Below are positions 8,868 to 57,683 of a stretch of 64,000 nt of DNA, in pieces. A program made the position numbers and the translations under genes. The stretch spans positions 1,730,578 through 1,794,577 of the forward strand of contig OZ245002.1 of NCBI GenBank assembly GCA_965223415.1, read 5' to 3'. A model generated the notes under the pieces. That model had not been told where the DNA came from and did not search any database. It saw only the letters and a list, made by a program, of their open reading frames with translations. Numbering within the stretch: the stretch's first letter is position 1; each line of letters begins with the position of its first letter. The stretch is from Myxococcota bacterium (lineage in GTDB: Bacteria; Myxococcota_A; UBA9160; UBA6930).

Positions 8868-9851
8868 TTGCCCCATCTACTCGTTTCCGGCGGTGCCGGC
8901 TACATCGGCAGCCACACCCTGCGCGCGCTGCGCAAGGCCGGCCACACGGCGGTGGTGGTCGACGATCTGCGCAGCGGCCGGACCTCCGCGGTCGAGGATG
9001 CACCGCTGGTCCGCTGTGACATCGGCGACCGGGACGGGCTGGATCGCCTCCTCGCGCGCTACGGCCCCTTCGAGGGCGTGCTGCACTTCGCGGCCTCGAT
9101 CCAAGTCGGTGAGTCCGTGGCCGACCCGCTGGCGTACTACCGGAACAACGTTCTGGGAGCGACCCAGCTGATCGAGCGCTCCCTCCACCACGGCGCTCGC
9201 GCGTTCGTGCTCTCCTCCACCGCGGCCGTATACGGGCACCCGGAGCAGCAGCCGATCCCGGAGACCGCGCCTCTCGCGCCGATCAATCCCTACGGGGCCG
9301 GGAAGGCCATGGTCGAGCGGATCCTCGCCGACGTGGAGGCCGCCCACGGCTTGCGCTGGGCCGCCTTGCGCTACTTCAACGCCTGCGGCGCCGACCCGGG
9401 CGGCGGCATCGGCGAGTGCCACGAGCCGGAGACCCATCTGATCCCCCTGGCGCTGGAGGCCGCCGCCGGCCTGCGCCCGGCGCTCCAGCTGTTCGGCACC
9501 GACTACCCCACGCCGGACGGCACCTGCATTCGCGACTACGTCCACGTGACCGATCTCGCCACCGCCCACGTGGCGGCGATGGAGGGGCTCCTCAGCGGGG
9601 GCCCCGGCGGGGCCTTCAACCTCGGAAGCGGGACCGGGCTCAGCAACCGCGAGGTGCTGGAGGGCATCGGCCGGGTCCTGGGCCTCCCGGTTCCCGTCGA
9701 GGACGCGCCGCGGCGCCCGGGCGATCCGCCGATCCTCGTCGCCGACGCGACGCGCTTCCGCAACGCCTTCGGCTGGGCGCCGCGCCACTCGGATCTCGAC
9801 ACGATCGTGCGTACGGCGTGGGAGTGGCTGCGCATCTGGCGAGGGCTCTGA
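8868..9851 (+). CDS. galE: UDP-glucose 4-epimerase
   Basis: The TTG start at 8868 is preceded by GGGAGGAA. LLVSGGAGYIGSHTLRAL...SSTAAVYG...YGAGKAM...LRYFNACGADP...IRDYVHVTDLA shows the extended-SDR GalE pattern. Confidence 0.9.
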   Translation: MPHLLVSGGAGYIGSHTLRALRKAGHTAVVVDDLRSGRTSAVEDAPLVRCDIGDRDGLDRLLARYGPFEGVLHFAASIQVGESVADPLAYYRNNVLGATQLIERSLHHGARAFVLSSTAAVYGHPEQQPIPETAPLAPINPYGAGKAMVERILADVEAAHGLRWAALRYFNACGADPGGGIGECHEPETHLIPLALEAAAGLRPALQLFGTDYPTPDGTCIRDYVHVTDLATAHVAAMEGLLSGGPGGAFNLGSGTGLSNREVLEGIGRVLGLPVPVEDAPRRPGDPPILVADATRFRNAFGWAPRHSDLDTIVRTAWEWLRIWRGL

Positions 9852-11537: not shown

Positions 11538-11571
11538 ACGCAGCAGGGGGACGGCGCCTCCGTTGCGTTCA
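11535..11571. terminator. Palindromic junction element (TGAACGCA...TGCGTTCA) between convergent genes; a likely bidirectional terminator
   Basis: tgaacgca gcaggggg acgg cgcct ccgt tgcgttca. The outer 8-bp arms and an inner 4-bp stem are complementary. TGA at 11535-37 is the kinase stop, and comp. 11569-71 is the NtrC-type gene stop. Confidence 0.55.
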
Positions 11572-13191: not shown

Positions 13192-13698
13192 CTAGCGCCG
13201 GCGGGCCGTCTTGCGTCGCGCGGTCTTCCGCGCCGTCTTGCGCCGAGCGGTCTTGCGAGCCGGCTTGCGGGCCGTCTTCTTCCGCGCGGTCTTCCTGCGG
13301 GTGGTCTTCTTCCGCGCCGTCTTCCGGGCGGTCTTCCGCTTGGGCGCCGCCTTGCGCCGGGCGGTCTTCTTGCGGGTCGTCTTCTTGCGCGCCGTCTTCC
13401 GCGCCGGCTTGCGGGCGGTCTTGCGGCGAGCCGTGGTCTTGCGCTTGGCCGTCTTCCGACGGGTCGGGCGCCCGCGCCGCGCCATCTTCGTGCGGGCCAC
13501 GTCGCCCTGCTTGTCGATGAAGTACAGGAAGCCGTCTTCCCGCTCGACGCCGACCTTCACGACCAGCTGCGGCTTGACCCGGGAGGGCTTGCCGCCACCC
13601 CGCGCCATCTTGGCCCGGCTCACGTGCCCCTTCTTGTCGAGGTAGTAGAGCCAGCCCTTCTCACGCTTGATTCCGGTCCTCGCGACCTTGGTGGCCAT
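13192..13698 (-). CDS. Chimeric basic DNA-binding-type protein: duplicated ~30-aa N-terminal module plus a histone H1/Hc2-like Lys/Arg/Thr/Ala repeat tail
   Basis: The ATG at comp. 13696-98 is preceded by AAGGAGG. The sequence is MATKVARTGIKREKGWLYYLDKKGHVSRAKMARGG...VKVGVEREDGFLYFIDKQGDVARTKMARRG, followed by 95 aa of (K/R)KTAR(K/R)-type repeats. Only the last 168 codons of ORF 13192..13827 are used. Confidence 0.75.
   Translation of the reverse strand: MATKVARTGIKREKGWLYYLDKKGHVSRAKMARGGGKPSRVKPQLVVKVGVEREDGFLYFIDKQGDVARTKMARRGRPTRRKTAKRKTTARRKTARKPARKTARKKTTRKKTARRKAAPKRKTARKTARKKTTRRKTARKKTARKPARKTARRKTARKTARRKTARRR
13195..13479 (-). repeat. Coding low-complexity repeat (KTARK/RKTAR units) of the histone-like tail
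   Basis: The DNA shows reiterated cgccgtcttgcg / gcgggtcttc-type 12-15-nt units. Translation gives RKTAKRKTTARRKTARKPARKTARKKTTRKKTARRKAAPKRKTARKTARKKTTRRKTARKKTARKPARKTARRKTARKTARRKTARRR. Confidence 0.8.
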
Positions 13699-13798
13699 GG
13701 ACCCCTCCTTGTTGGTGTGGTTCGGATGCCCGCCCGGGGAGAGCGGGGCTCTGGAGGAACCGCACCGCGGCAGGGGGAAGACCGGCGGTACACCGCAG

Positions 13799-13827
13799 AG
13801 GATCGGGAGCGCCACCGACGGTGTCAA
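13799..13827 (-). promoter_or_regulatory. Candidate sigma-70 promoter of the histone-like gene
   Basis: On the minus strand: TTGACA (comp. 13822-27), a 17-nt spacer, then GATCCT (comp. 13799-13804). This would give a leader of roughly 90-95 nt before the AAGGAGG RBS. The -35 is perfect and the -10 is weak. Confidence 0.45.
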
Positions 13828-13906
13828 TAGCGAAATCGAGGGTTTATCGACGGAGTTGCGAGTCGCCCGAGCCCCCCCCCCGGCGAGGGGGTCGGCCCGG
13901 ATGCGC

Positions 13907-15020: not shown

Positions 15021-17435
15021 GTGAGCCGGTTCCGCATCCTGCTCGCGGCCGTCGTGCTGCTGGGCGTCGCCGCCGGGGCCGCCGGCAGCGCCTTCTACCT
15101 GAAGTTCGTCCGCGATCTGCCGAGCTTCGAGACCCTGGCGGACTACCGCCCCCCGCTGACCAGCACGGTCGTCGATCGCCACGGCCAGCCCATCGGCGAG
15201 TTCTACGAGCACCGGCGCCAGCTGACGCCTCTGGAGGAGGTGCCGGGTGTCGTCATCGACGCCTTCCTGGCGGCGGAGGACGACACCTTCTTCGAGCACG
15301 ACGGCGTGGACTACGTGTCCATCCTGCGTGCGGCCTGGGCGAACCTGCGGGCCGGCGGCGAGACGGTGCAGGGCGCGAGCACCATCACCCAGCAGACCGT
15401 GAAGCAGCTGCTGCTGACGCCGGAGCAGACCTACGAGCGCAAGATCCGCGAGCTGATCCTGGCGCGGCGGATCGAGCAGCGCTTCAGCAAGGACGAGATC
15501 CTCTACCTCTACCTGAACCAGATCTACTTCGGCGCTGGTGCGTATGGCGTCGGCGAGGCGGCGCGCACCTACTTCGGCAAGGCGATCGGCGAGGTGGACG
15601 CGTCGGAGGCGGCGCTGCTGGCCGGGCTGCCGAAGGCCCCCGGGCGCAACTCGCCCTACCTGAACGCGGAGCGCGCCGAGGAGCGGCGGGTGTACGTGCT
15701 GCAGCGCATGCACGAGGAGGGCTTCCTCGACGCGGAGAGTTTCGGCGCGGCGCTCGCGAGCCCGCCGGCGCTGGCCAACCGTGAGCTGCCGGAAGCCTAC
15801 GAGGTGGCCTCCTACGTCACCGAGGACGTGCGACGGTCGCTGGTGGCGGCGCTGGGCAACGACGTGGTGCTGCGCGGTGGGCTGCGGATCGAGACGAGCG
15901 TCGATCTCGAGCTGCAGCGGGCGGCGGTGACCGCCGTGCAGACCGGTCTCGAGGCCCTCGATCGGCGGCGCGGCTACCGCGGGCCGCTCCGGCGCGTCGA
16001 GGATCCGGAGAACGCATGGACCGGGCTCGTCCCGGAAGAGGGAGAGGCGGACGCGCCCCGTCCGGATCGGCTGCAGGCGGTGGTGCTCGAGGTCGAGAAG
16101 GGACGCGCCCGGGTGGCCGTGGGGCCGGACCGGGAGGCGGAGCTTCGCCTGGAGGATCTCACCTGGGCGCGCCGGGAGGATGCACCGCGTCGCGAGGTGA
16201 AGGACCTGAACCGGGTGCTGGCCGTCGGCGACGTGGTGCCGGTGCGAATCGGCGAGGACGGCCAGGCCGTACTCGCCCAGCGTCCCCAGGCCCAGGGCGC
16301 GCTGCTCTCCTTCGACGTCGAGAGCGGTGACGTGCTCGCCATGGTCGGGGGCTACGACTTCGAGGACAGCGAGTTCAACCGTGCGACCCAGGCCAGCCGC
16401 CAGCCCGGCTCCGCCTTCAAGCCGATCGTCTACGCCGCCGCCCTCGGGCGGGGCTATACGCCGGCGTCGATGCTCTACGACCGGCCGGTCGTGATCGAGA
16501 GCGAGGGCTTCACCTGGCGTCCCGAGAACTACGGTCGCAAGTTCCTGGGCCCGATCCTGTTCGGCGAAGCGCTCGCCCGCTCGGTGAACAACGCCACGAT
16601 CCACCTGCTCCGGGACGTCGGCATCGACTACGTGATGGACTTCACGCGGCGGCTCGGGATCGAGGCGGAGCTCGAGCGCAACCTCGGGCTCGCCCTTGGA
16701 TCCAATCCGGTGACGCTACTCGAGCTCACGCGGGCCTACGGCGTGTTCGCGGCCGGCGGGCGCCGGGTGGAGCCGCGCCTGATCCACCGGGTGCTGGACC
16801 GGGACGGCGTGGTGCTGCTCGAGGCGGTGCCGCTGGCCCCGGTGCCGGAGGAAGACGAGGCACCGGAGGTGGCGGCCCGCCCGCCGGAGCCCCTGCGACC
16901 GGTGCTGCCGGAGCTCGCGGGCAGCGAAGGGGACGGGGCTCGGCCCGAGGACCAGCTCATTACGCCGCAGCACGCCTACCTGGCGAGCTCGGTGCTGCGT
17001 CTGGTGGTCGAGCATCCGCGGGGAACCGGGCGCCGGGCCGCGAGCCTCGGGCGTCCTCTGGCGGCGAAGACCGGCACGACCAATGATCAGGCCGACGCCT
17101 GGTTCGTCGGCTACTCGCCGGACGTGGCGACCGGTGTGTGGGTCGGCTTCGACGAGAAGCGGGTGCTAGGCCGCGGCGAGACCGGCAGCCGCGCCGCCGC
17201 GCCGATCTGGATCGAGTACATGGGCACCGCCCTGGCGGAGCGCCCCGTGCGCGACTTCCCCGTGCCCGAGGGCATCGTCTTCGCCCGCATCGACGGATCG
17301 AGCGGCCTGCTCGCCTCCAGCGCCAGCGAGCAGACCGTCTTCCAGGCCTTCGCCGAGGGCACCGAGCCGACCGAACGCGCCGACGCCGCCGTCACCGCCG
17401 CAAAGGAACGCCGCCGCCTGCAGCTCGACTTCTGA
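15021..17435 (+). CDS. mrcA: Penicillin-binding protein 1A (bifunctional glycosyltransferase/transpeptidase)
   Basis: TM segment: FRILLAAVVLLGVAAGAAGSAF. GT51 motifs: AFLAAEDDTFFEHDGVD, GASTITQQTVKQL, RKIRELILARRIE. Transpeptidase motifs: RQPGSAFKP, SVNN, KTGTTND. I chose the GTG at 15021; an alternative in-frame GTG lies at 14955. Confidence 0.9.
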   Translation: MSRFRILLAAVVLLGVAAGAAGSAFYLKFVRDLPSFETLADYRPPLTSTVVDRHGQPIGEFYEHRRQLTPLEEVPGVVIDAFLAAEDDTFFEHDGVDYVSILRAAWANLRAGGETVQGASTITQQTVKQLLLTPEQTYERKIRELILARRIEQRFSKDEILYLYLNQIYFGAGAYGVGEAARTYFGKAIGEVDASEAALLAGLPKAPGRNSPYLNAERAEERRVYVLQRMHEEGFLDAESFGAALASPPALANRELPEAYEVASYVTEDVRRSLVAALGNDVVLRGGLRIETSVDLELQRAAVTAVQTGLEALDRRRGYRGPLRRVEDPENAWTGLVPEEGEADAPRPDRLQAVVLEVEKGRARVAVGPDREAELRLEDLTWARREDAPRREVKDLNRVLAVGDVVPVRIGEDGQAVLAQRPQAQGALLSFDVESGDVLAMVGGYDFEDSEFNRATQASRQPGSAFKPIVYAAALGRGYTPASMLYDRPVVIESEGFTWRPENYGRKFLGPILFGEALARSVNNATIHLLRDVGIDYVMDFTRRLGIEAELERNLGLALGSNPVTLLELTRAYGVFAAGGRRVEPRLIHRVLDRDGVVLLEAVPLAPVPEEDEAPEVAARPPEPLRPVLPELAGSEGDGARPEDQLITPQHAYLASSVLRLVVEHPRGTGRRAASLGRPLAAKTGTTNDQADAWFVGYSPDVATGVWVGFDEKRVLGRGETGSRAAAPIWIEYMGTALAERPVRDFPVPEGIVFARIDGSSGLLASSASEQTVFQAFAEGTEPTERADAAVTAAKERRRLQLDF

Positions 17436-17458
17436 ACGCAACGCCCGGGTTGCGTTCA
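17433..17458. terminator. Palindromic junction element, TGAACGCAAC-gcccgg-GTTGCGTTCA
   Basis: Perfect 10-bp arms. The PBP1A stop is TGA at 17433-35 and the HAD gene stop is at comp. 17456-58, so both stops are the terminal triplets of the hairpin. Confidence 0.55.
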
Positions 17459-18139
17459 GGAGCGTTCCCCCTGCTGCGTCAGGGCGAGGAGGTCGGCGGG
17501 AGTGGAGGCGAGGTGGTGGGCGCCGGCTTCGCGGAGCTCGGCAGGGCCCCCGATGCCCCAGGTAGCGCCGATGGTGAGCAGGCCGTGGGCCTGGCCCGCT
17601 CGGATGTCGAGGTGGCGATCGCCGACCATCGCGGCGGAGGGCGACTCCGGGCCTCCGCCCAGGGCCGCGAGGGTCCGGCCGACCGTGGCCGTCTTGTCCT
17701 CGTGGTGGGTGCCTTCGAGGGGCGCGCCGACGATCGCCTCGAAGTGGCCGGCGAGCCCCAGGCTCTCAAGGATCGGAACCGCGAAGTCCGCCGGCTTCGA
17801 GGTCGCCACGGCCAGCCGATGCCGCGACGCCAGCGTCTCGAGACACGCCGGAATGCCCTCGAAGGCCGGCGTCTCCCGGGGCGCGACCACGGTGTAGCGC
17901 TCCCGGTAGTGGTCGATGGCCGTGGGGATCGACGCCGGATCGGCGTCCCGGGCCGCCAGCAGGGCGGAGAAGACCTGGTGGAGGGAGACCCCGATCCAGC
18001 CGTGCAGGGCGTGCTCGGGCTCCCGCTCGAGGCCCAGCGCTTCCAGTGCGTGGTTGATGCAGAGGCTGATCGGATGCCGGGAATCGACCAGCACGCCGTC
18101 CAGGTCGAAGAGGATCGCCTCGAGGGGGTGCATTGACAT
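17456..18139 (-). CDS. HAD-superfamily hydrolase (phosphoglycolate-phosphatase-like)
   Basis: MSMHPLEAILFDLDGVLVDS (DxDxV motif I), LAVATSKP (motif II), MVGDRHLDIRAG (motif IV). This is the inner start of ORF 17456..18451. Confidence 0.8.
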   Translation of the reverse strand: MSMHPLEAILFDLDGVLVDSRHPISLCINHALEALGLEREPEHALHGWIGVSLHQVFSALLAARDADPASIPTAIDHYRERYTVVAPRETPAFEGIPACLETLASRHRLAVATSKPADFAVPILESLGLAGHFEAIVGAPLEGTHHEDKTATVGRTLAALGGGPESPSAAMVGDRHLDIRAGQAHGLLTIGATWGIGGPAELREAGAHHLASTPADLLALTQQGERS

Positions 18140-18267: not shown

Positions 18268-19365
18268 GTGGAGCGCCTCGCCGGCGCGACGCGCTGCACC
18301 CGCATCGCCGCCTGGGGACGTGGCCCGGACGGCGCACCGCAGGTGCTGGCGGCGCGGATCGAGGGCGCGGCGCTGACCGAGCCGCCGCCGGGGGCCCTCG
18401 AGGCCGCGACCCGTCTCGCCGGCGCTTGGGACCTGGGGGCGAGCGACACACCGCCCCCCCTCCAGGCGCTCGCCGATCAGGGCTTCAGCGCCGTAGCGCC
18501 AATCCGAACGGCGGAGCACGAGGGCGCGGTGGGCCTCCTCCTCCTCGGCGGGCCGGCGGAGCCGCTGGGCCGGGTGCGGCCGCGCACCCTGGCCGCCCTC
18601 GGCGCGGCGGCCGAAAGGCTTCGCGGCCCGTTCCTGGCCGCCGCCTCTGCCGCTCGGCTCGCCCGCCTCGACCTGGAGGTCCAACGGCTCGATCGCCTGG
18701 CCGCCCTCGGCGGACTGGTCGCCGAAATCGTCCACGAGATCCGCAATCCGCTGGTCTCCGTGAAGACCTTCCTCCAGCTGCTGCCCGAGCGGGAATCGGA
18801 TCCGGAGTTCACCGAGAGCTTCCTGGCGGTGGCCCGCGAGGAGCTGCAACGCATCGAGCGGCTCCTGGGCGTCGTCCTCCAGCACGGCCGCCCGCCGCGG
18901 GCGGACCGGGCGCCGGCCCGCGGCGATCTGGCCGAGGCCCTGGAGAGCGTGACCCAGCTGGTGCGCTTCCGGGCCGACGACCAGGAGCTCACCCTGGAGG
19001 CCGAGCTCCCGGGCCGCCTGCCGCCCGTCACCCTCGGCCCCGACGCGCTCCGCCAGGTGCTGCTGAACCTCGCGCTGAACGCCATCGAGGCCTCCCCGCG
19101 CTCCGGCACCGTTCGGGTCACCGCCGCGCGCTCCGGAGGGCGCCTGCGCATCCGCGTGGAGGACGAGGGGGATGGCATCCCGCCGGCGTTGCGCCCGCAC
19201 CTGTTCACCCCGTTCTTCTCCACCAAGACGGAGCGCCCCGGCGGCCTCGGGCTGGCGATCACGGCCCGCATCCTGGAGGAGGCCGGCGGCGGCATCCGGG
19301 CCGCCGATCGACCTGGCGGCGGGACACGGATGGAGGTGACGCTCCCGCTGGCTCCGAGGCGCTAG
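18268..19365 (+). CDS. Cytoplasmic sensor histidine kinase (GAF-like N-terminus)
   Basis: GTG start. H-box: LGGLVAEIVHEIRNPLVSVKTF. HATPase region: LNLALNAIEAS...VEDEGDGIP...FFSTKTERPGGLGLAI. There is no TM segment. Confidence 0.8.
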   Translation: MERLAGATRCTRIAAWGRGPDGAPQVLAARIEGAALTEPPPGALEAATRLAGAWDLGASDTPPPLQALADQGFSAVAPIRTAEHEGAVGLLLLGGPAEPLGRVRPRTLAALGAAAERLRGPFLAAASAARLARLDLEVQRLDRLAALGGLVAEIVHEIRNPLVSVKTFLQLLPERESDPEFTESFLAVAREELQRIERLLGVVLQHGRPPRADRAPARGDLAEALESVTQLVRFRADDQELTLEAELPGRLPPVTLGPDALRQVLLNLALNAIEASPRSGTVRVTAARSGGRLRIRVEDEGDGIPPALRPHLFTPFFSTKTERPGGLGLAITARILEEAGGGIRAADRPGGGTRMEVTLPLAPRR

Positions 19366-20094: not shown

Positions 20095-21081
20095 ATGGCC
20101 GAGATCCCCGAACCGAGCGACCTGCGAAACGACCTGCACGCGAGCTGGGAGGCCTATCTGGATCTGCTGGTGCCGATCCGTCCCGACCTCTACGCCTACT
20201 GCCGGCGGCTCACCGCCAGCGTCTGGGATGCGGAGGACCTGGTGCAGGACACTCTCCTGCGGGGCTTCGGGCACCTGGGGTTCCTCGGCCAGGAGGTCGG
20301 CAGCGTGCGCGCCTACATGCTGCGCGCCGCATCCAACGCCTGGATCGACCGGCAGCGTCGGCGGGCTACGGAGGCCCGGATTCCCGACGATCGCCTCCCG
20401 ACCCCGGATGCGGTGGCGCGACCGGACCAGCGCACCGCAGTGCGCGATGCCGGCGCCAGGCTCCTGCATCGGCTCGCGCCGCAGGAGCGGGCCGCGATCG
20501 TCCTGAAGGAGGCCTTCGAGCTCCCGATCCGCGAGATCGCCGAGATCCTCGCCACGACGGAGGGCGCCGTGAAGAACGCGCTACACCGGGGACGCGATCG
20601 CCTTCGAGCGCCCGACGATGCGCAGGAGCGCCGCCCGGCTCCTCCGGACGCACTGGTCGATCGCTTCATCGAGCTCTGGGAAGCGAGAGACGTGGGCGGA
20701 CTCGTCGACCTGCTGGCCCCCGGCGGCTCGGCCGAGAACGTGGGCTTCGGTCTCCAGTACGGGCGCGACGCCTTCGAAGGAACCGAGAACTTCCTCTACA
20801 AGGCGGTGCATGGCCACGAGGAGTGGCCCGAGTGGTTCCAGCCGGAGTCGGTGCGCCTGGCTCCGGGCCGCTTCGAGGGCGTCCCTATCGTGCTCTGCTT
20901 CGCGACCCGGAGCGGAGAGGAGGCCCTCGAACAGGTGCTGCGCCTCGATGGCGTCGACGGGCGGATCGCGCGCCTGCGGGGCTACGGTTTCTGCCCCGAG
21001 ACCATGCGGGAGGTCGGCGCCGCCCTCGGCTTGGAGGTGCGGACGGGCCTGTACCGCGTTCCCAGCTTCGACGCGCCCTGA
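20095..21081 (+). CDS. ECF-type sigma-70 factor with a long C-terminal (SnoaL/NTF2-like) extension
   Basis: Region 2: YAYCRRLTASVWDAEDLVQDTLLRGF. Region 4: LAPQERAAIVLKEAFELPIREIAEILATTEGAVKNALHRGRDRL. About 140 extra C-terminal residues follow, as in SigJ/ECF41-like sigma factors. Confidence 0.8.
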   Translation: MAEIPEPSDLRNDLHASWEAYLDLLVPIRPDLYAYCRRLTASVWDAEDLVQDTLLRGFGHLGFLGQEVGSVRAYMLRAASNAWIDRQRRRATEARIPDDRLPTPDAVARPDQRTAVRDAGARLLHRLAPQERAAIVLKEAFELPIREIAEILATTEGAVKNALHRGRDRLRAPDDAQERRPAPPDALVDRFIELWEARDVGGLVDLLAPGGSAENVGFGLQYGRDAFEGTENFLYKAVHGHEEWPEWFQPESVRLAPGRFEGVPIVLCFATRSGEEALEQVLRLDGVDGRIARLRGYGFCPETMREVGAALGLEVRTGLYRVPSFDAP

Positions 21082-26235: not shown

Positions 26236-26238
26236 CCG

Positions 26239-26274
26239 TTGCGTCGGGGCCGGTTCAACCGGCCGCTAACGCAA
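26239..26274. repeat. Imperfect palindromic junction element of the TTGCGT(T/C)(A/G)GGGCCGGTT family
   Basis: ttgcgtcggggccggtt c aaccggccgctaacgcaa. The right arm contains the stop (comp. 26266-68) and the last two codons (L-R) of the phosphoesterase gene. Confidence 0.6.
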
Positions 26275-29698: not shown

Positions 29699-30511
29699 AT
29701 GGGCGTCGACCTGGGGGCGAGCCTGGCGAAGCTGGCGATCCGCCACGGCCCGGGCGAGCGGGAGCTGCGGCTGTTGCCGGCGGAGGACGAGGGCGCCGTG
29801 CTCGGGGCGGTGGAGGAGCTAGCACCCCAGCGTGTCGGCCTCACCGGCGCCGGCGCCACGGGATTGGCCGGCCGGCTGCCCGGGGAGCCCCTGCTCGTGA
29901 ACGAGTTCGCGGCCTGGGGCCGGGGGGCGGCGGTGCTGCTCGACCAGCGCGAGGGCGGCGAAACGGAGCCCTTCCTGCTCGTCTCCCTCGGCACGGGCAC
30001 CTCGGTGATGCTGTGCGACGGCGTGGCGGTCAGCCGGATCGGCGGCACCGCGCTCGGCGGCGGCACCGTGCTGGGCCTCGGCGCGCTCCTGGTGGGCGAG
30101 GCGTCCTTCGAGCGCCTCGCCACGCTCGCGACCCAGGGCGACCGGCGCCGGGTGGACCTCCTGGTGGGCGACATCTACGAGCCGGGCCAGATCGCCCTCA
30201 TCGGCGATGCCACGGCGGCCGCCTTCGGCAAGCCAGGCATCCGCGGCGAGCCGCCGGCGGCCGAGGACCTCGCCCAGGCCATCATGGGCCTGGTCGGCGA
30301 GAACGTGGCGCTGCTCTGCTCGGCCCTCGCGAGCGCGCACCAGGTGAAGCGCATCGTGTTCGGCGGCTCGACCCTGCGCCACAACGGCGCTCTTCGCGCG
30401 ATCCTGCTCGGCACCACCGCCGCTTTCGGCCGCGAGCCGGTCTCCCTCGACGACGGCGAGTTCGCCGGCGCCCTCGGCGCCCTCGCCCTGGTCCGCGAAA
30501 CCGCCGCCTGA
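29699..30511 (+). CDS. ASKHA-fold kinase, type II pantothenate kinase (Fumble)-like
   Basis: MGVDLGASLAKLAI...GLTGAGA...FLLVSLGTGTSVMLCDG...RIGGTALGGGTVLGLGALL...RRVDLLVGDIYE...IVFGGSTL follows the Fumble/CoaW-type pattern. This is an inner ATG of ORF 28931..30511. Confidence 0.6.
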   Translation: MGVDLGASLAKLAIRHGPGERELRLLPAEDEGAVLGAVEELAPQRVGLTGAGATGLAGRLPGEPLLVNEFAAWGRGAAVLLDQREGGETEPFLLVSLGTGTSVMLCDGVAVSRIGGTALGGGTVLGLGALLVGEASFERLATLATQGDRRRVDLLVGDIYEPGQIALIGDATAAAFGKPGIRGEPPAAEDLAQAIMGLVGENVALLCSALASAHQVKRIVFGGSTLRHNGALRAILLGTTAAFGREPVSLDDGEFAGALGALALVRETAA

Positions 30512-30552
30512 GAACGCAAGCCCGGGGACGTTCCGTCCCCGGGCTTGCGTTC
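30512..30552. terminator. Perfect 19-bp-stem hairpin filling the convergent junction
   Basis: gaacgcaagcccggggacg ttc cgtccccgggcttgcgttc. The flanking stops are at 30509-11 (TGA) and comp. 30551-53 (TGA). It contains the GGGGACGTTCC core shared with the 57.6-kb and 63.7-kb palindromes. Confidence 0.7.
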
Positions 30553-32041
30553 AGAGCTTGGGGGCGGGCTCGCTGGGCTCGTCTTCGGGACGGGCGATGG
30601 TGCGCAGGACGCGCTGGGTGCGGGCGATGGCGGCGCGTTGGACCCGGAGCTCCTCGGTCTGGGCCGATGCTTGACGCTCGAGGCGCTCCTTGGCGTCGAC
30701 GACCTCCTCGAGGCGTGTCTCCAGGTGCGCGATGCGGCGCTCGAACTCCTCGACGATCTTCCCTACCTCGGCGTTGCCGACTTCGTTGGGGCCGACCGCG
30801 GCCATCGGTGCGACGGGAGCCACCGGAACGGCGGGCGCGCCGCCGATGCCGGCGGGCGCCGGGAAGTCCTCTTCCGGATCGTCGGTTCCCTCCACGACGG
30901 CCTCCTCCGCAGGCGCGCCCTCGTGGACGGCGCCGGGCTCGATGTCGTACTGGCTCGCCGGCGGCAGGCCCTCGTCCCGGGCCCCGGCGGCGCCCTCTCC
31001 CTCCAGGCCTTCGGAGAAGGCGAAGCCGGCCTCGGGCTCGGCATCCTCCGCCACGTCGAGGGGCGAGAGGACCTCGCCCTCGTCGGCATCGGCGCTTCCC
31101 CGCCGGCGGCGCCCCAGCACGAACAGCAGGGCCACGACCGCGAGGCCGGCCAGGGCGGTCAGTACGACCGGGCTGCCGAGCAGGCTTCCGCTGCCCTGGG
31201 CCGCGGGCGGCTCCAAGGGCGGCGTCGCCACCGGCGCGTCGGCGAGGGGCTCCTCGGAAACGACTTCGCCGATCTCCACGCCGGCGAAGGCGTCGTCGGA
31301 CCCCGGCTCGGGCTCGAGCCCTTCCGGCGCGTCCCCGAGCACCTCGCCTTCGAGGAGCGGCTCGTCGAGCGCCGCGAGCTCTGCTTCGGCCAGCGCCTCG
31401 TCCATCGCGGCGTCGTCCGCCGGATCGACCAGGTCGTCGCCGGCCATGGCCAGCTCTTCGACGGCGGCGTCGGAAGGGGCGAGCTCGTCCGCGGCTTCGA
31501 CGGCGCCCTCGTCCGCCGGGGCGAGGGGCTCGGCCACCGCGGCCAGCTCCCCGCTCTCCCGCAGCGGCTCCGCCGCGGGCGCGGGACTCGCGGTGAGGCT
31601 CGACACCAGGGAAGCCTTCCCGGCCCCCGGATCGAAGAAGTCCAGCACGATCCGGTCCGGCCCCCGGAGCACGAGCTCCTTCATCTCGGCATCGCCCGAC
31701 AGCCGGATGCGGACGTCGGTCTTGCCGCTCTCCCCGGCGCGCACGCGAACCGCCCGGATATGCCGGCTCTTGGCCGGACGGATCGGCGCGATCTCGCTGG
31801 GCGCGGCGTCGAGGGCGACGATCAGCACCTGGCTGCCGTCTTCCTTGGGCTGCATCCCGACCAGCTGGTAGGGCGAAATGCCGTCGAGCTGGAAGACCAC
31901 CCGCGAGTAGTCGGCGTGAACGCCGACCCGCACGTCGGTCAGGTTTGCGCCGCTCGCCGGGCCGGCGAGCAGCAGGACCACGCCGGCGATCAAGACGATC
32001 GTTCGGCCGCGGCCTTGGTCACGGAGCATTCGACACGGCAC
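30551..32041 (-). CDS. Bitopic envelope protein: signal peptide, AMIN-like domain(s), acidic linker, one TM segment, acidic region, and a C-terminal coiled coil
   Basis: Signal peptide: RTIVLIAGVVLLLAGPASGA. AMIN-like: DVRVGVHADYSRVVFQL and IRAVRVRAGESGKTDVRIRLSGDAEMKELVLRGPDRIVLDF. TM: LLGSPVVLTALAGLAVVALLFVLGRRRRG. Coiled coil: GKIVEEFERRIAHLETRLEEVVDAKERLERQASAQTEELRVQRAAIARTQRVL. The start is GTG at 32041 or ATG at 32029. Confidence 0.65.
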   Translation of the reverse strand: MPCRMLRDQGRGRTIVLIAGVVLLLAGPASGANLTDVRVGVHADYSRVVFQLDGISPYQLVGMQPKEDGSQVLIVALDAAPSEIAPIRPAKSRHIRAVRVRAGESGKTDVRIRLSGDAEMKELVLRGPDRIVLDFFDPGAGKASLVSSLTASPAPAAEPLRESGELAAVAEPLAPADEGAVEAADELAPSDAAVEELAMAGDDLVDPADDAAMDEALAEAELAALDEPLLEGEVLGDAPEGLEPEPGSDDAFAGVEIGEVVSEEPLADAPVATPPLEPPAAQGSGSLLGSPVVLTALAGLAVVALLFVLGRRRRGSADADEGEVLSPLDVAEDAEPEAGFAFSEGLEGEGAAGARDEGLPPASQYDIEPGAVHEGAPAEEAVVEGTDDPEEDFPAPAGIGGAPAVPVAPVAPMAAVGPNEVGNAEVGKIVEEFERRIAHLETRLEEVVDAKERLERQASAQTEELRVQRAAIARTQRVLRTIARPEDEPSEPAPKL

Positions 32042-36335: not shown

Positions 36336-36718
36336 GCCTGGAATCGAAACGCATCGTCGTCGATGGCGTCGGCCGCCTGCCCGTCTTCTCCCATGCCGCC
36401 ACCGCCGGCGACCTGATCTTCGTGTCGGGCACCCTCGGCACCGAGCCGGGAGGCGTCTCGCTCGTACCGGGCGGCATCGGGCCGGAGACGAAGCAGACCC
36501 TCGAGAACATCCGCACCATCCTGGAAGGGGCCGGCGCGAGCCTGGCCGACGTGATCAAGGTGAGCGTCTACGTCACCGACATGGCCGACTTCCGCGCGAT
36601 GAACGAAGCCTACGCCGGGTTCTTCCCCGCAGAGCCGCCGGCGCGGATCACCCTGCAGGTGGCGGGGCTCGCCCTGGGCGCGGCGGTGGAGATCGAGTGC
36701 GTGGCGGTGCGGCGCTAG
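36332..36718 (+). CDS. RidA/YjgF family enamine/imine deaminase
   Basis: PVFSHAATAGDLIFVSGTLG...TKQTLENIRTILEGAGASLADVIKVSVYVTDMADFRAMNEAY...PARITLQVAGLALGAAVEIE. The GTG start at 36332 overlaps the upstream stop, with GAAGGAGG 9 nt upstream. Confidence 0.8.
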   Translation: MSLESKRIVVDGVGRLPVFSHAATAGDLIFVSGTLGTEPGGVSLVPGGIGPETKQTLENIRTILEGAGASLADVIKVSVYVTDMADFRAMNEAYAGFFPAEPPARITLQVAGLALGAAVEIECVAVRR

Positions 36719-38701: not shown

Positions 38702-39427
38702 GTGAGCGAGGGCGCGGGCGAGGACGTCCGCAAGCGCTTCTTTCGGCTGCGCTGGGAGGCGAGCCAGCAGCCGGTGCGGGGCGTGTGGGCCATGCGCCGG
38801 CGGCTCGCGGACGCGATGCGCCGCGTGATCGAGCGCCTGCTCACGAGTGACGCCCCCGAGGCCGAGCTCGGGGCCGCGGCGGAGCGGCTGGAGGAGTATG
38901 CGGAGCGCCTGGCGGGCCATCCCCGCCGCGAGCGTTACCTGGGCTTCGCTGAGACCGCCGTCGCCGACCCGGACGCGGAGATCACGCCGCCCGAAGGCGG
39001 CGGTCACTTTGATTTCAGCCCGCTGATCGGCCGCTCGAACCCGCTGGCGCCGCCCATCGAGATGTCGTCGGACGAGGCCGGCACGGTCCATGGGGTGGCC
39101 GTCTTCGGCACCGCCTACGAGGGCCCGCCGGGCTGCGTCCACGGCGGCTACATCGCGGCCGCCTTCGACGAGGTGCTGGGCTACGCCGAGACCTTCTCCG
39201 GCCAGCCCGGCATGACCGGCACCCTCACCACCCGCTACCGCACCCCGACCCCCCTCCACACCGAGCTCCGCTTCACCGCGAAGCTCGACCGCGTCGAAGG
39301 CCGCAAGATCTTCTGCAGCGGCACCCTCCACGCCGGCGACCGCCTCTGCGCCGAAGCCAACGCCATCTTCGTCACCAGCCGCCCCGGCACCTACACCCAG
39401 CTCCTCGAACAAAGGAAGTTGCGTTAG
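38702..39427 (+). CDS. PaaI/hotdog-fold thioesterase with a long N-terminal extension (paralog 2)
   Basis: GTG start. YEGPPGCVHGGYIAAAFDEVLGYAE...MTGTLTTRYRTPTP...GRKIFCSGTLHAGDRLCAEANAIFV is colinear with the 35694 protein. Confidence 0.75.
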   Translation: MSEGAGEDVRKRFFRLRWEASQQPVRGVWAMRRRLADAMRRVIERLLTSDAPEAELGAAAERLEEYAERLAGHPRRERYLGFAETAVADPDAEITPPEGGGHFDFSPLIGRSNPLAPPIEMSSDEAGTVHGVAVFGTAYEGPPGCVHGGYIAAAFDEVLGYAETFSGQPGMTGTLTTRYRTPTPLHTELRFTAKLDRVEGRKIFCSGTLHAGDRLCAEANAIFVTSRPGTYTQLLEQRKLR

Positions 39428-39484
39428 GGGCCGGTTCTGTTCGTTGCATTGCGTGTTGCATTAGGGGCCGGGTCCGTTTGTTGC
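39418..39484. repeat. Two direct copies of the GTTGC(G/A)TTAGGGGCCGG(T/G)TC-type half-element in a convergent junction
   Basis: Copy 1 is gttgcgttaggggccggttctgttcgttgc (39418-39447). Copy 2 is gttgcattaggggccgggtccgtttgttgc (39455-39484). Copy 1 encodes the last two codons and the stop (L-R-TAG) of the thioesterase. Confidence 0.7.
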
Positions 39485-39485
39485 G

Positions 39486-40976
39486 TTACCGGAGCTCGCG
39501 CTTGAGGATCTTGCCGGTGGGGCCCTTCGGGAGGGTGTCGATGATCTCGACGATGCGCGGGTACTTGTAGGCGGCGAGGTTCTGCTTGCAGTAGGCGACG
39601 AGCTCCTCGGGGGTCGTCTGCTGCTCCTTGCCCAGGGCGACGACCGCCTTCACCTCCTCACCGTGGCTCTCGTGGGGGACGCCGATCACGGCGGCCTCGA
39701 CGACGGCCGGATGGGCGTAGAGCACCTCCTCGACCTCGCGCGGATAGACGTTGAAGCCGCCTCGCAGGATCATGTCCTTCACCCGGTCGACGATGCGGTA
39801 GCTACCGCCGGGATCGCGGATGCCGATGTCGCCGCTGTGGAACCAGCCGCTGCGCATCGTCTCGGCCGTGGCCTCGGGGCGGTTCCAGTAGCCCTTCATG
39901 ATGTTGTGGCCGCGGATGCAGATCTCGCCGCGCTCCCCGTCCGGCAGGGGCTGGTCCTTGTCGTCGAGGATGGCCATCTCGACGCCCCACACCGGGTAGC
40001 CGATCGAGCCGGGCGTGCGCGGCTTGTCCGGCTGGTTGAAGCTCGCCACGGGCGAGGTCTCCGAGAGCCCGTAGCCCTCGAGGATCTCCACGCCGAATTT
40101 CGCCTCGAAGGCCTTCATCACTTCCACCGGCATGGGCGCGCCGCCGGCCATGCAGTAGCGAAGCGACGAGAGATCGGGCTGGCGCGCCCCCTCGTGGTGG
40201 AGGAGCGCGAAGTACATCGTCGGCACACCGGCGAAGAGCGTGACCTTGTCGCGCTCCATGATCTCCATCGCCTCCTCGGGCGTGAAGCGGGGGAGCAGCG
40301 TAAAGGTGCCGCCGGTCGCGATGGTCGCGTTCTGGATGCAGGTCTGGCCGAAGGAGTGAAAGAGCGGCAGCGTCGCCAGCGCCACGTCGTCCTTGCCGAG
40401 GGGCAGCAGCTTCGGCACCACCACCGCGCAGTTCACGAACAGGTTCGCGTGGCTGAGCTCGGCGCCCTTCGGCTTGCCGGTCGTGCCCGACGTGTAAAGG
40501 ATGACCGCCGTGTCGTCGGGGCTCGTCTCGTGGAACGCCGGGAGCGGCGCCACCGCCGCCATCGCCGGCAGGTCGTCGTCCGCCTCGCCGTCGACCCACG
40601 CTACGGGCACGCCGGCGCCGTTGGCGCCGGTCGCCGCCGGCTCGCCGAACAGCGGATGGGCGATCAAGAGCTGCGCCTCGGAGTCCTCGATGTGGTAGGT
40701 CACCTCGGGCGCCGAGAGCAGGACGTTCAGGGGCACCACCGCGCAGCCGGCGTAGAGGATCCCGTAGTAGGCGATCGTGAACTCGGGGACGTTCGGGATC
40801 ATCACCGCCACCTGGGAGCCGGGGGCGATGCCCCGTTCGCGCAGGCCGGTGGCGACGCCGCGGGCCGCCCGGTCGAGCTCGGCGTAGCTCAGGCTCCGCT
40901 CGCCGAGGCGGATGGCGGGATGTTCCGGGCGGTCCTGGGCGGCCGCCATCAGGATGGATCCGAGATTCAGGCTCAT
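39486..40976 (-). CDS. AMP-dependent acyl-CoA synthetase (long/medium-chain fatty-acid--CoA ligase type)
   Basis: ILYTSGTTGKPKGAEL (AMP motif I), EGYGLSETSP, WFHSGDIG, GGFNVYPREVE, PKGPTGKILKREL. Confidence 0.85.
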   Translation of the reverse strand: MSLNLGSILMAAAQDRPEHPAIRLGERSLSYAELDRAARGVATGLRERGIAPGSQVAVMIPNVPEFTIAYYGILYAGCAVVPLNVLLSAPEVTYHIEDSEAQLLIAHPLFGEPAATGANGAGVPVAWVDGEADDDLPAMAAVAPLPAFHETSPDDTAVILYTSGTTGKPKGAELSHANLFVNCAVVVPKLLPLGKDDVALATLPLFHSFGQTCIQNATIATGGTFTLLPRFTPEEAMEIMERDKVTLFAGVPTMYFALLHHEGARQPDLSSLRYCMAGGAPMPVEVMKAFEAKFGVEILEGYGLSETSPVASFNQPDKPRTPGSIGYPVWGVEMAILDDKDQPLPDGERGEICIRGHNIMKGYWNRPEATAETMRSGWFHSGDIGIRDPGGSYRIVDRVKDMILRGGFNVYPREVEEVLYAHPAVVEAAVIGVPHESHGEEVKAVVALGKEQQTTPEELVAYCKQNLAAYKYPRIVEIIDTLPKGPTGKILKRELR

Positions 40977-44065: not shown

Positions 44066-44959
44066 ATGGGAGCTTCCACGGCCGGGGACGAGCTCGCGAT
44101 CTGGCGCGAAGAGCTCCAGCTCCCGGAACGGTCGCTCTCCCGGCTGCGCCCGCCGTCGCCGATGGCCGACGACGTGATGAAGCTGCGCATCCGCGACGAG
44201 CGCGGGCACAGCAGCGGCGTCGCCCTGTGCTCGTCGCCGGGCTGGCCGGACATGGTGGCCCGCGGCGTGGAGCGTGCCCGGGCGGCCCGCGGCGCCCTGG
44301 GCGACGAGCTCGGCGCCGTCGTGCTCGAGCCGGTGCGGGAGGGCCGCCTCGACGGGCGCTCCTATGCCGTGCTGCCCTACCACGAGCCCCTGCCCGGCGG
44401 GCGTCTGGCCTGGGCGTTCCAACGACCGCGCTTCCGGACCGCGGTGGCCGATTGGCTGGCCGAGGCGACGGCTCGCACGGCCCGGCTGCCGGAGGGTGCC
44501 GAGCTCGAGGCCGGGTTCCGGGCGCCGCTCCGGGCCCTGTCGGAGCTCGCCGGGGTCTCCGAACGGGTGCGCGCCGCCGCCGGCGAGGCGTTCGCCCGCC
44601 TGGAGGGAGGCTGGTCCCCGCGCCACGTGCTGATGCACGGGGACCTGTGGCCGGGCAACGTGCTTCGCGCCGACAACCGCTTCGGCTTCGTGCTGATCGA
44701 CTGGGCGGGCAGCCGCACCGACGGCCACGGCGTGTTCGATCTCCTGCGCTGGGCTGAGGCCACGCGCCTGGGCGCGGCTCCCCTGCGTGCGCGGCTCGAG
44801 GTGCACTGCAGCCAGCTCGACTGCGATGTCGCCGACGCCCGCTCGACGCTGCTCGGCGCCCTCGCCCGGATCGCGAGCAGCCTGGGGGAGTTCCCGCTCG
44901 ACCAGTTCGCGGCGATGGCGGAGCGCTGCCTCGACGGGCTGGCGCGGGCCGGCGCCTAG
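44066..44959 (+). CDS. Aminoglycoside-phosphotransferase/choline-kinase-like (APH family) kinase
   Basis: Catalytic loop: RHVLMHGDLWPGNVL. FVLIDWAG is the DxxG-type Mg-binding region. The start is uncertain (ATG at 44066 or 44162). Confidence 0.65.
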   Translation: MGASTAGDELAIWREELQLPERSLSRLRPPSPMADDVMKLRIRDERGHSSGVALCSSPGWPDMVARGVERARAARGALGDELGAVVLEPVREGRLDGRSYAVLPYHEPLPGGRLAWAFQRPRFRTAVADWLAEATARTARLPEGAELEAGFRAPLRALSELAGVSERVRAAAGEAFARLEGGWSPRHVLMHGDLWPGNVLRADNRFGFVLIDWAGSRTDGHGVFDLLRWAEATRLGAAPLRARLEVHCSQLDCDVADARSTLLGALARIASSLGEFPLDQFAAMAERCLDGLARAGA

Positions 44960-45127
44960 GAGCCTGACCCGAGACCGGGTGCGCTGGGCCTCGAGGCGCC
45001 GCGCCCAGTCGGCCCGCCTGGGCGCGCGACCGAGGCGTAGCGGTGTCTACGGCGATGGCAGCGCAACGCAGTCGGCGCGGATGCATCGGCGTCCAGACCG
45101 TGCGCCCGGTCTCGGGTCAGGCTCCTA
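44957..45127. repeat. 171-bp element bounded by 23-bp perfect terminal inverted repeats (MITE-like or a structured RNA)
   Basis: taggagcctgacccgagaccggg (44957-44979) is the exact reverse complement of 45105-45127. The 125-bp core has internal stems (ctgggc/gcccag, gtag/ctac). CGCC flanks both ends. The left TIR begins with the kinase stop codon TAG. Confidence 0.55.
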
Positions 45128-48373: not shown

Positions 48374-50020
48374 TTGAACGAGCAGCTCTTCCTGGCGACG
48401 GGCGTCGTGTTCGTCGTGTTGGTGACCGTGGCCATGCTCCGTGTGGAAGCGCGGAGGGGCGGCGCAGCGTGGGCTGCCTCCTGGATCTGCCTCTACCTCT
48501 CGGGCATGGCTGCGCTCTTCGCCGAGCGGTGGCCGGCCTTGGGCCCGCTCTACGCGGTGCTCGGTACCTGCTTCGCCGCTCTGCTCTGGATCGGCGCCCG
48601 GTACTTCGCGGGCAAGGGCCTGCCCGGGTGGTTCCTGCCGGTGGTGGGCGGCGTCGTCCTCGTGCGTGCGGCGGCGCATCCCTTCCTCCCGGAGGCCGGC
48701 GTCCAGGTCGTCGGGTCGAGCCTGGTGACCCTGGGCGCACTGTGGGCGGCGTGGGAGGTCGGGAAGGCCTCGCTCACACCGGAAGGCAGCGCGGGCGATT
48801 GCGTGCTCGCCACGAGCTTCACGCTGCTGGCTGCGACGAGCTGGGTCTACGCCTGGTGGAAGGTGACCGGTACCACCGCGAACGGCTTCTACCTCTGGCT
48901 CGTGGCGGGCATCCTGGTATCGGGCCTCCAGACCGGTGCGCTCATGGCGCGGGTCTCCCGCTCCGTCGAGCGCGGGCGCGGTGCGCTGGCGGCGCTCTTC
49001 GACTCGGTACCGATCGGCCTCGTGCTCTCGGGGGTCGACGGCGCGGTCAAGGTGACGAACCGGGTCATGGCGGAGATGGTCGGCGGCGAGCCCGCCGACG
49101 CCTGGCCCAGGCGCCCCGTGGCCGACCTCCTCGCGCGCCTCGATCCCGGCCGTCCGTCGGCTCCGGCGAGCCTGGCAGACCCCTGGGCGGGGGTGCGGAA
49201 CGAAGAGCTCCGCCCCTCGGACCAACGCGTGATCGAGGCCCAGGGCCGTCCCGTCGAGGCCGAGGACGGCGAGATCGTGGGGCGCCTGATCCTGGCTCGC
49301 GACGTGACCCACGAGCGGCGGATGCAGGAGCAGCTGCAACGCTCCGGGCGGCTCGAGACCCTCGGACGCCTGGCCGGCGGCATCGCCCACGACTTCAACA
49401 ACAAGCTCACCACGGTCCTCGGCAACGCGGCGTTGGTTCGCTCGAGCCTGCCGCCCGGCCACCCCCAGCACGCCGCGCTGGCGGATCTCGAGAGCGCGGC
49501 CATCGCCTGCGCCGATCTGACCAACGACCTGCTCGACTTCTCGAAGCGGGGCCCGCGGGCGCTGCGGCCGGTCGCCCTCGCTCCGCTGCTCGAGCAGCTC
49601 GCCGGCGAGTTCGCGAGCCAGCTGGGGGACGACGTGAAGCTCGAGATACAGATCGCACCGGACCTGGGCCTGCTGCGCGCGGATCCGAAGCAGCTCGAGC
49701 GCGTGCTCACGAACCTGATGCTGAACGCCCGCGACGCGGTGGGGCAGAGTGGGCGCGTCGCCCTCTCCGCCGCACGCGCCCGGCGAACGCGCCGGGAGGT
49801 GATCGAGATCGCCATCTCGGACGACGGGACGGGCATGGACGACGAGACCCGACAGCGCATCTTCGACCCCTTCTTCTCCACCAAGGGGAGCGGGACCGTC
49901 GCGACCGGCCTGGGCCTCGCGATCGTCCACGGGATCGTCGCCTCCCACGACGGAGAGATCCACGTGGAGAGCCTCCCGGGCCGCGGCACCCGGGTGGTGA
50001 CGACCTGGCCGACGGCCTAG
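48374..50020 (+). CDS. Membrane sensor histidine kinase (polytopic N-terminus, PAS-like, HisKA, HATPase)
   Basis: TTG start. There are about 6 hydrophobic helices. PAS-like: LFDSVPIGLVLSGVDGAVKVTNRVMAEMVG. H-box: LAGGIAHDFNNKLTTVLG. ATPase: LMLNARDA...ISDDGTGMD...FFSTKGSGTVATGLGLAIV. Confidence 0.85.
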   Translation: MNEQLFLATGVVFVVLVTVAMLRVEARRGGAAWAASWICLYLSGMAALFAERWPALGPLYAVLGTCFAALLWIGARYFAGKGLPGWFLPVVGGVVLVRAAAHPFLPEAGVQVVGSSLVTLGALWAAWEVGKASLTPEGSAGDCVLATSFTLLAATSWVYAWWKVTGTTANGFYLWLVAGILVSGLQTGALMARVSRSVERGRGALAALFDSVPIGLVLSGVDGAVKVTNRVMAEMVGGEPADAWPRRPVADLLARLDPGRPSAPASLADPWAGVRNEELRPSDQRVIEAQGRPVEAEDGEIVGRLILARDVTHERRMQEQLQRSGRLETLGRLAGGIAHDFNNKLTTVLGNAALVRSSLPPGHPQHAALADLESAAIACADLTNDLLDFSKRGPRALRPVALAPLLEQLAGEFASQLGDDVKLEIQIAPDLGLLRADPKQLERVLTNLMLNARDAVGQSGRVALSAARARRTRREVIEIAISDDGTGMDDETRQRIFDPFFSTKGSGTVATGLGLAIVHGIVASHDGEIHVESLPGRGTRVVTTWPTA

Positions 50021-53728: not shown

Positions 53729-53740
53729 CGTTGCGTCGGG

Positions 53741-57678: not shown

Positions 57679-57683
57679 CTACT

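Follow-up and report, generated by a model that had tools for sequence, protein, structure and literature searches.

The stretch of DNA analyzed here (the window) comprises 64,000 nucleotides (nt) of contig OZ245002.1 (assembly GCA_965223415.1, positions 1,730,578 to 1,794,577) from a Myxococcota bacterium. Its GC content is 71.4%, and all counts given for this genome are drawn from it. At three sites within the window, two convergent genes are separated by a single hairpin, which constitutes the entire spacer between a pair of TGA stops (11537/11569, 17435/17456, and 30511/30551). These hairpins, called type A below, and the repeats with which they share sequence words are the subject of this report. 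The first (11535-11571) lies between a histidine kinase gene on the plus strand and an NtrC-type regulator gene on the minus strand, the second (17433-17458) between genes for PBP1A (plus) and a HAD protein (minus), and the third (30509-30553) between a Fumble-like gene (plus) and an AMIN gene (minus), with stops at 30509-30511 and the complement of 30551-30553. The names that the original prediction, made from the sequence of the window, had given to these six genes are upheld by Pfam (HisKA/HATPase, Sigma54_activat, Transgly plus Transpeptidase, HAD, and AMIN-like) and, for the Fumble gene, by PF03630 in the precomputed annotation. Genes were called by our own procedure based on GC at third codon positions, which is crude at start codons; it returns PBP1A as exactly the 804-residue protein on record and the Fumble-like protein as 270 residues, versus 277 on record.

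At all three sites the sequence reads as had been claimed (none of the hairpins or inverted elements described here is assigned a strand). The hairpin at 11535-11571 is imperfect. Its ends are TGAACGCA...TGCGTTCA (full sequence, TGAACGCAGCAGGGGGACGGCGCCTCCGTTGCGTTCA), it forms an outer stem of 8 bp and an inner stem of 5 bp, and it carries a degenerate form, GGGGGACGG, of the core element described below. The hairpin at 17433-17458, TGAACGCAAC-gcccgg-GTTGCGTTCA, is the shortest and has no core. At 30509-30553, a TGA is followed by 19-bp perfect arms (GAACGCAAGCCCGGGGACG / CGTCCCCGGGCTTGCGTTC) and a 3-nt loop, TTC; this hairpin (30512-30552) contains the core GGGGACGTTCC at positions 30524-30534. 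The further statement that all six genes end in TGA followed directly by ACGCA(A/G) is correct for five of them. The Fumble-like gene ends in TGA-GAACGCAA, so that its stop lies outside the perfect palindrome. Predicted RNA folding energies are -22.8 kcal/mol (z -4.6), -15.1 kcal/mol (z -3.9), and -41.8 kcal/mol (z -9.8) for the three hairpins in order, and the minus-strand RNA of the first folds weakly (just -15.3 kcal/mol, z -2.1). The pattern GAACGCA-N(0-30)-TGCGTTC has three exact matches in the window (11536-11570, 17434-17457, and 30512-30552), where 0.02 are expected, and none of 100 dinucleotide-preserving shuffles contains three or more; thus, the enrichment of the arm motif stands. 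The reported lack of a U-tract is also confirmed, since no T-run lies 3' of any of the three hairpins and a terminator scan of the window flags none of them. Of the two features of a Rho-independent terminator, a GC-rich hairpin and the U-tract that follows it, only the hairpin is present.

The sequence words of these hairpins are not restricted to the three sites; they recur at further convergent junctions of the window. There are 16 such junctions, five in which the genes overlap and 11 with a spacer, and nine of the latter contain strong inverted or direct repeats made from a few shared words. The heptamer AACGCAA is present in 12 copies (1.6 expected), all of which lie beside the stops of six convergent junctions and none within a gene. 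GGGGACGTTCC occurs five times, in every case at a convergent junction and never inside a gene. All five copies of GGGGAC..TCC and all eight copies of GGGGCCGG.T(C/T) are intergenic or coincide with a stop codon. Every repeat copy is located at a convergent junction, 0-5 nt from the stops.

A repeat unit has three layers: an outer word (here TTGCGTT/AACGCAA), a short spacer, and a core, which is GGGGACGTTCC or one of the variants GGGGACGG and GGGGCCGGTTCC. Units can be single (type A, whose core is within or close to the loop), arranged as an inverted doublet that makes a long perfect palindrome, or in tandem. Types A and B have the outer word in common, and types A and C have the core in common. 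Aligned with each other, the type-A copies follow the form GAACGCA(A/G)-GCCCGGGG(ACG)...-TTGCGTTC, with internal deletions, or, with W and W' for the outer word and its partner, W-GCCCGGGG(ACG)-W'. Consequently, the TGAACGCAA arms from which the original prediction had built its family do not define one; this string joins a stop codon to the outer word of a family that is wider and modular. In total, the window holds three type-A hairpins, five to six type-B units, and two type-C doublets.

The type-B unit reads TTGCGTT-A-GGGGCCGGTTCC-GTTTG-TTGCGTT. Identity among its copies is 91-94%, and they are found both inverted and direct; therefore, structure alone is not what is conserved. A shortened inverted pair (CGTTGCGTCGGGGCCGGTTC / TTGCGTTAGCGGCCGGTTG) lies at 26236-26274, and two units in head-to-tail orientation on the plus strand, TTGC(G/A)TTAGGGGCCGG(T/G)TC(T/C)GTT(C/T)GTTGC, lie at 39419-39488, an arrangement in which a long hairpin is impossible. 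The third site (53729-53816) is a doublet with 37-nt perfect arms, GTGTTGCGTTAGGGGCCGGTTCCGTTTGTTGCGTTGC, and a partial unit, CGTTGCGTCGGG, ahead of the palindrome (53740-53816). Of the type-C doublets, the one at 57597-57682, which resembles a REPIN (a doublet of repetitive extragenic palindromes, or REPs), is an 80-nt perfect palindrome (57599-57678) whose arm consists of GTAG-AAGTGCAAG-AGT-GGGGACGTTCC-TTGCAACTT. The other (63674-63748) is a 73-nt perfect palindrome (63674-63746) with 35-nt arms that contain the hairpin GAGACA-A-GGGGACGTTCC-TTTC-TGTCTC. In both type-C doublets, the arm by itself folds into a small hairpin whose loop contains GGGGACGTTCC. An inverted repeat of about 28 nt, (C/G)TAG-GAGCCTGACCCGAGACCGGG, surrounds a 115-nt interior at 44957-45127 and has a GTAG tag on one side. 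GTAG tags are located at 57597-57600 and, on the complement, at 57679-57682 and 45124-45127, and CGTC is seen at 26242 and 53735, in type-B variants. A scan with Rfam at the gathering score returned no match, other than rRNA and tRNA, either in the window or in a set of 20 loci from elsewhere that have the core.

Several of these elements provide the end of the adjoining gene. Three unrelated genes terminate in LR* by way of the rare-codon string TTG CGT TAG (TTGCGTTAG), which comes from the type-B repeat: ...VLR* at 26266-26274 (minus strand), ...KLR* at 39419-39427 (plus strand), and ...VLR* at 53805-53816 (minus strand), where GTG TTG CGT TAG lies within the palindrome. At the head-to-tail pair, the opposing minus-strand gene has a TAA followed by CGCAAC. 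The gene that ends at 57600 uses the last three bases of the left GTAG tag as its TAG stop, and the gene that ends at 63678 has its TGA inside the left arm of the palindrome, whose right arm is abutted by a TAG. The left TAG of the inverted repeat at 44957-45127 is the stop of the upstream gene. A possible older type-A remnant lies in the 3' end of the HAD gene (17459-17480, minus strand). The last seven codons of this gene contain ACGCAGCAGGGGGA, which is identical to 11538-11551, and its tail, TQQGERS*, is not conserved in orthologues; indeed, HAD tails differ in all four genomes compared. The suggestion that the element may insert at or create stop codons thus has partial support. Elements supply stops and tails, but the flanks show no conserved target motif, and the NtrC junction has its TGA...TCA in common with a relative.

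Other convergent junctions of the window have features of their own. In four convergent pairs the overlap is exactly 4 nt, the palindrome CTAG (8306-8309, 19362-19365, 36715-36718, and 50017-50020), so that both genes end in TAG and the stops share bases, the minimal stop-to-stop palindrome. A 261-nt convergent spacer at 13646-13906, in which none of the family words is present, has a C10 run near 13880; its predicted fold is very stable, at -123 kcal/mol for 279 nt.

The core is widespread. In metagenomes, the pattern GGGGACGTTCC-N(10-40)-GGAACGTCCCC is found at 120 loci at least, where by a rough estimate no more than a few matches would be expected by chance. The assemblies include gut, sediment, and soil, and the GC content of the loci listed ranges from 28 to 74%. 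Among the matches listed, the core is constant and the outer words vary by family (GTTGACTT, CTTGCTTT, CCGTCAC, GCCGGCAC, and AGACAAAA); the core has A/T-rich positions on its flanks and a pyrimidine after it, and the units form doublets and tandem arrays. These matches, too, lie at gene ends. An open reading frame (ORF) of at least 100 codons ends within 45 nt on one side or both in 66 of the 86 listed matches that could be analyzed, versus 99 of 430 control positions, and such ends are present on both sides in 21 of 86 versus 8 of 430. The gap between stop and palindrome edge has its maximum at -2 to +3 nt (37 of 117, among the matches listed). Among the 120 matches listed, no gene family is common to the neighborhoods, with seven loci at most sharing any one family. 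Genes bracketed by two palindromes in loci L231 and L186 were considered as candidates and proved to be ordinary genes, not transposases. A search for the core string in a library of papers gave no relevant one. The pattern TGAACGCAA-N(0-30)-TTGCGTTCA was discarded as a database probe because it is too unspecific; its 49 matches in IMG/VR are all unrelated contigs of 33-63% GC.

In an uncultured deltaproteobacterial metagenome-assembled genome (MAG), L013, positions 10992-11078 form an 87-nt perfect palindrome with two cores per arm, GGGGACGTTCC and GGGGACACTCC. The palindrome has a TGA on its left, at a distance of 5 nt, and a TAG directly adjoining its right end.

In other genomes, repeats of this core class surround genes for transposases of the RayT (REP-associated tyrosine transposase) type. 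Locus L194, one of the metagenome loci with the core, encodes at 53-829 a 258-residue Y1_Tnp protein whose best NCBIfam match is the REP-associated tyrosine transposase. The gene is flanked by repeats with the same core, and a palindrome of the same family follows the stop of the next gene, 1.6 kb away. Homologues of the protein carry the JGI name "REP element-mobilizing transposase RayT". At all of the homologue loci examined (L256/257, L258, L259, and L260/261, with 43-71% identity), inverted W-GGGGAC(GT/GG/AG)..CC-W' repeats enclose the gene. Core-like inverted repeats thus surround the RayT-like Y1 gene at five of five loci examined (L194, L256, L258, L259, and L260/261), and the flanking repeat of L256, GAGACAAAAGGGGACGTACCTTGTGTCT, is closely similar to the arm at 63674 of the window, GAGACAAGGGGACGTTCCTTTCTGTCTC. 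A REP-like family, as originally proposed, is the best reading of the repeats, although not one defined by the TGAACGCAA arms, and the RAYT link for which a search had been suggested is seen in related data. An ORF in a Haliangiales MAG (L049, 15505-16347), considered as a linked transposase, was rejected; it is a weak Y1_Tnp/IS200-like match (Pfam E = 3e-6), and no GGGGAC-core repeats lie around it. The contigs that carry RayT-like homologues are mostly 1-5 kb in length, which would fit with assembly breaks at the repeats on either side of the gene.

Comparison of orthologous junctions, chosen beforehand as the check that could refute the original prediction, gave a mixed result: gain, loss, or replacement of the element at two junctions and partial shared ancestry at one. 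The closest relatives compared are uncultured Myxococcota-like MAGs and metagenome contigs that are fully syntenic, with 69-79% protein identity. At the Fumble/AMIN junction, both proteins of relatives at about 78% identity end at the same residues as in the window, with TAG rather than TGA stops. Their spacers (42 and 68 nt) are unrelated to that of the window, lack the hairpin, and contain repeats of their own. Because the orthologues stop at the same residue with TAG, a selenocysteine insertion (SECIS) or other recoding hairpin after UGA is ruled out. At the PBP1A/HAD junction, the relative L263 has a different perfect palindrome of 85 nt (7783-7867), with outer word AAGTCAAC and core GGGGACGGGG. 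It runs into the HAD gene, where its arm, AGCGGGGACGGGGTTTACAATTG, encodes the last ten residues. In L262, a remnant of this arm (9433-9470) encodes the last ~10 codons of HAD in another frame, and in L264 no element is present, the two genes having an overlap of 4 nt. Core-bearing palindromes at stops are also found elsewhere in these relatives: TAG-CGGGGACGTTCCTTGCGAACTTG...-CTA at 270-358 of L263, homologous to the element at 57599 of the window, and TGA-C-GGGGACGTTCT... at 11500-11603 of L264.

The NtrC junction is different in that all relatives have TGA...TCA with a spacer of 13-16 nt and a short stop-to-stop palindrome, TGAGCGC...GCGCTCA. L263 (76% identity) reads TGAACGCAGCCGGGGGCGCTCA and shares TGAACGCAGC.GGGGG, the left half of the element, with the window. 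The right side in the window is changed to TTGCGTTCA, which is complementary to the conserved left side. The NtrC copy is thus old and was at most remodeled in this lineage. The histidine kinase gene next to it (9915-11537), which encodes a seven-transmembrane (7TM) protein, is missing in the syntenic relatives, in which the regulator gene has an epimerase gene as its direct convergent neighbor; the kinase gene appears to be an insertion and to have taken over the TGA of the junction.

Two further observations concern other parts of the window. An ECF-type sigma gene (20095-21081), whose product has a long C-terminal extension, has no counterpart at that place in L081, L262, L263, or L264, and a query with this gene against genome contigs yielded 80 loci, all at 60% identity or less and none syntenic with the window; by coincidence, L013 with its 87-nt palindrome is among them. 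A distinct element of about 190 nt (6767-6965), which follows directly on a TAG stop (6767-6769), has terminal inverted repeats GGGGCCGCTTCGCTTCT / AGAAGGAGCGAAGCGGCCCC. In the relative L081, a highly structured 461-nt spacer (18352-18814) has ends, GCCGCTTTGCTTCTC, that resemble it.

We consider it probable that the three hairpins are short, partly decayed singlets of a non-autonomous palindromic repeat family of the REP/REPIN type. Such repeats are a known kind of element, no new mechanism is called for, and the overlap with stops has already been described for GTAG REPs. Di Nocera, De Gregorio & Rocco (2013; PMC3733652) describe REPs as single units, as clusters, and as dimers of head-head and tail-tail type; in convergent spacers they are mostly 20 bp or less from both ORFs, and GTAG termini often supply a TAG stop. 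In the account of Bertels and colleagues, REP doublets (REPINs) are the mobile unit, and RAYTs are mostly single-copy and inherited vertically. The repeats of the window resemble the REP/REPIN-RAYT systems of E. coli, Pseudomonas, and Stenotrophomonas (SMAGs) in being short, GC-rich hairpin repeats of lineage-specific sequence, dispersed at several sites within 64 kb as singles, inverted doublets, and tandem units (doublets at 53740-53816, 57599-57678, and 63674-63746, a head-to-tail pair at 39419-39488, and the type-A hairpins as single units). They are extragenic, at 3' ends and in convergent spacers near both ORFs, both in the window and in the wider core family. Their termini can provide a stop, and related repeats flank a RayT-like gene in other genomes. 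They differ from classical REPs in that the stop overlapped by the element here is TGA rather than TAG, in their perfect arms of up to 40 nt, and in an 11-nt core that recurs in very different genomes, where classical families share only a tetranucleotide tag. The repeats around RAYT-like genes called TIRYTs (TIRtrons) are also similar, with longer flanking inverted repeats that share GGGGWSAS and moderately abundant families, including dimers and clusters, in Acidobacteria and other groups, according to PMC3733652. Compared by motif only, GGGGACAG (L259 and L260) and GGGGACAC (L013) fit GGGGWSAS, whereas GGGGACGT and GGGGACGG (the window, L194, L256, and L258) depart from it at positions 7-8.

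Several points weigh against assigning the type-A hairpins to such a family. The hairpins begin with (T)GAACGCA and lack the GTAG or CGTC terminal tag of classical REPs. The copies share only 8-16 nt and have diverged far more than the type-B or type-C copies; thus, they could be old relics or, in part, products formed in situ. Type B is so far known from the window alone, given that a metagenome scan with its 23-nt unit gave no match. The NtrC copy is not a recent insertion, because L263 has the TGA...TCA and TGAACGCAGC.GGGGG as well. Outside the palindrome edges, neither a conserved motif nor a duplication was seen among the core loci examined. Finally, there is no RayT gene in the 64-kb window or in the syntenic stretches of relatives that were searched, and the RayT-like proteins elsewhere score 64-70 bits (64 for the protein of L194), under the NCBIfam equivalog cut-off of 80.

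If the hairpins are indeed REP/REPIN-type repeats, their units would be copied, now or formerly, by a RayT-like HUH/Y1 enzyme through single-stranded hairpin intermediates. We infer mobilization of this type because the same core class forms inverted repeats around RayT-like genes elsewhere. Copies would survive only where they are harmless, and in a compact genome of 71% GC harmless DNA would amount to the few bases between convergent genes, so that an element may come to fill the whole spacer. The palindrome could extend outward until it meets coding constraint. Since stop codons are interchangeable, they could be absorbed as TGA...TCA, TAG...CTA, or TAA...TTA, and an element that cuts into the end of a gene would supply the stop and a few tail codons. 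By analogy with E. coli REPs, the transcribed hairpins would probably be 3'-end structures without a U-tract that impede read-through and exonucleases for both mRNAs. In E. coli, a REP has been shown to be both a partial terminator and an mRNA stabilizer, and at convergent pairs the expression of both genes is higher (2026 preprint, bioRxiv 10.64898/2026.03.23.713779); REPs 15 nt or less from a stop stall ribosomes, according to the summary in PMC12306157. A secondary role of the present hairpins as terminators or stabilizers is plausible on this analogy.

Other origins can be imagined for hairpins in such positions. They might have evolved in the host, independently at each junction, as "I-shaped" bidirectional terminators without a U-tract, and would then be alike through constraint rather than through descent or mobility. 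Like such terminators of high-GC bacteria, they are stable structures that come right after a stop, adjoin two convergent genes, and have no U-tract; all three are strong folds exactly between convergent genes, strong hairpins are present at nearly all convergent junctions with a spacer, and the TGAGCGC...GCGCTCA found at the NtrC junction in all relatives suggests a conserved structure. However, terminators form no repeat families with shared words or cores, have no link to transposases, and are not found as tandem direct units, whereas here 8-9 specific bases after the TGA are common to the arms, well above the chance expectation. The missing U-tract also counts against this origin, as does the junction without a comparable hairpin in the Fumble/AMIN relatives, and the 35-40-nt arms are perfect as DNA, with no drift of the G-U type. 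We think an origin purely as host-evolved terminators unlikely, since the words in question are also present in arrangements that cannot make the long hairpin (the same word and core as direct repeats at 39419-39488) and around transposase genes. Alternatively, in-place template switching (snap-back repair) could copy one side of a short spacer as the complement of the other, the shared words being remnants of a few ancestral spacers and no transposase taking part. The perfect arms, the lack of a target-site duplication or flanking motif, and the NtrC junction, where the TGAACGCAGCCGGGGGCGCTCA of L263 corresponds to a right side in the window that complements the conserved left, are in keeping with such a process. 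Yet it does not explain the same word in 12 copies and cores at unlinked junctions, type-B units 14 kb apart that are 91-94% identical, the same 11-mer core in 120 or more loci of very different GC, or the position of that core around RayT-like genes. We regard it as quite unlikely as the source of the repeats; it may still help to keep arms perfect and may account for the remodeled NtrC junction.

A third possibility, that AACGCAA/TTGCGTT and GGGGACGTTCC are binding sites of a host protein or DNA-uptake sequences, draws on the strong over-representation of short motifs that are often found as inverted pairs downstream of genes, in the way that inverted pairs of DNA uptake sequences (DUS) or uptake signal sequences (USS) double as terminators. 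But uptake sequences are dense and largely intragenic, and here none of the 12 AACGCAA copies and none of the five cores is in a gene. Moreover, the outer word varies between genomes with only the core persisting, and the core class flanks transposase genes, so that this explanation is very improbable. A bolder version of the REP/REPIN reading would make the elements with the GGGGACGTTCC core an uncharacterized, cross-phylum REPIN superfamily, tied to a distinct clade of RayT-like proteins that score below the cut-off and have a C-terminal helix-turn-helix. These elements would be placed or retained precisely at stops, would regularly rewrite the stops and last few codons of unrelated genes, and would serve as the default bidirectional 3'-end structure without a U-tract in lineages like the present one. 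We think this a speculative extension with a low probability of being correct.

For the annotation of this genome, the consequence is that almost every spaced convergent junction, as seen in the 64-kb window, is repeat DNA. Because elements encode several stops and tails (LR* and that of HAD), alignments of gene ends and predictions of terminators will mislead unless the repeats are masked. The 11-nt core, found at loci of low and high GC and beside RayT-like genes, is a handle for families of the REPIN type and their transposases outside the Proteobacteria. Finally, this uncultured, Myxococcota-like lineage is a good place to ask whether hairpins can terminate transcription without a U-tract.

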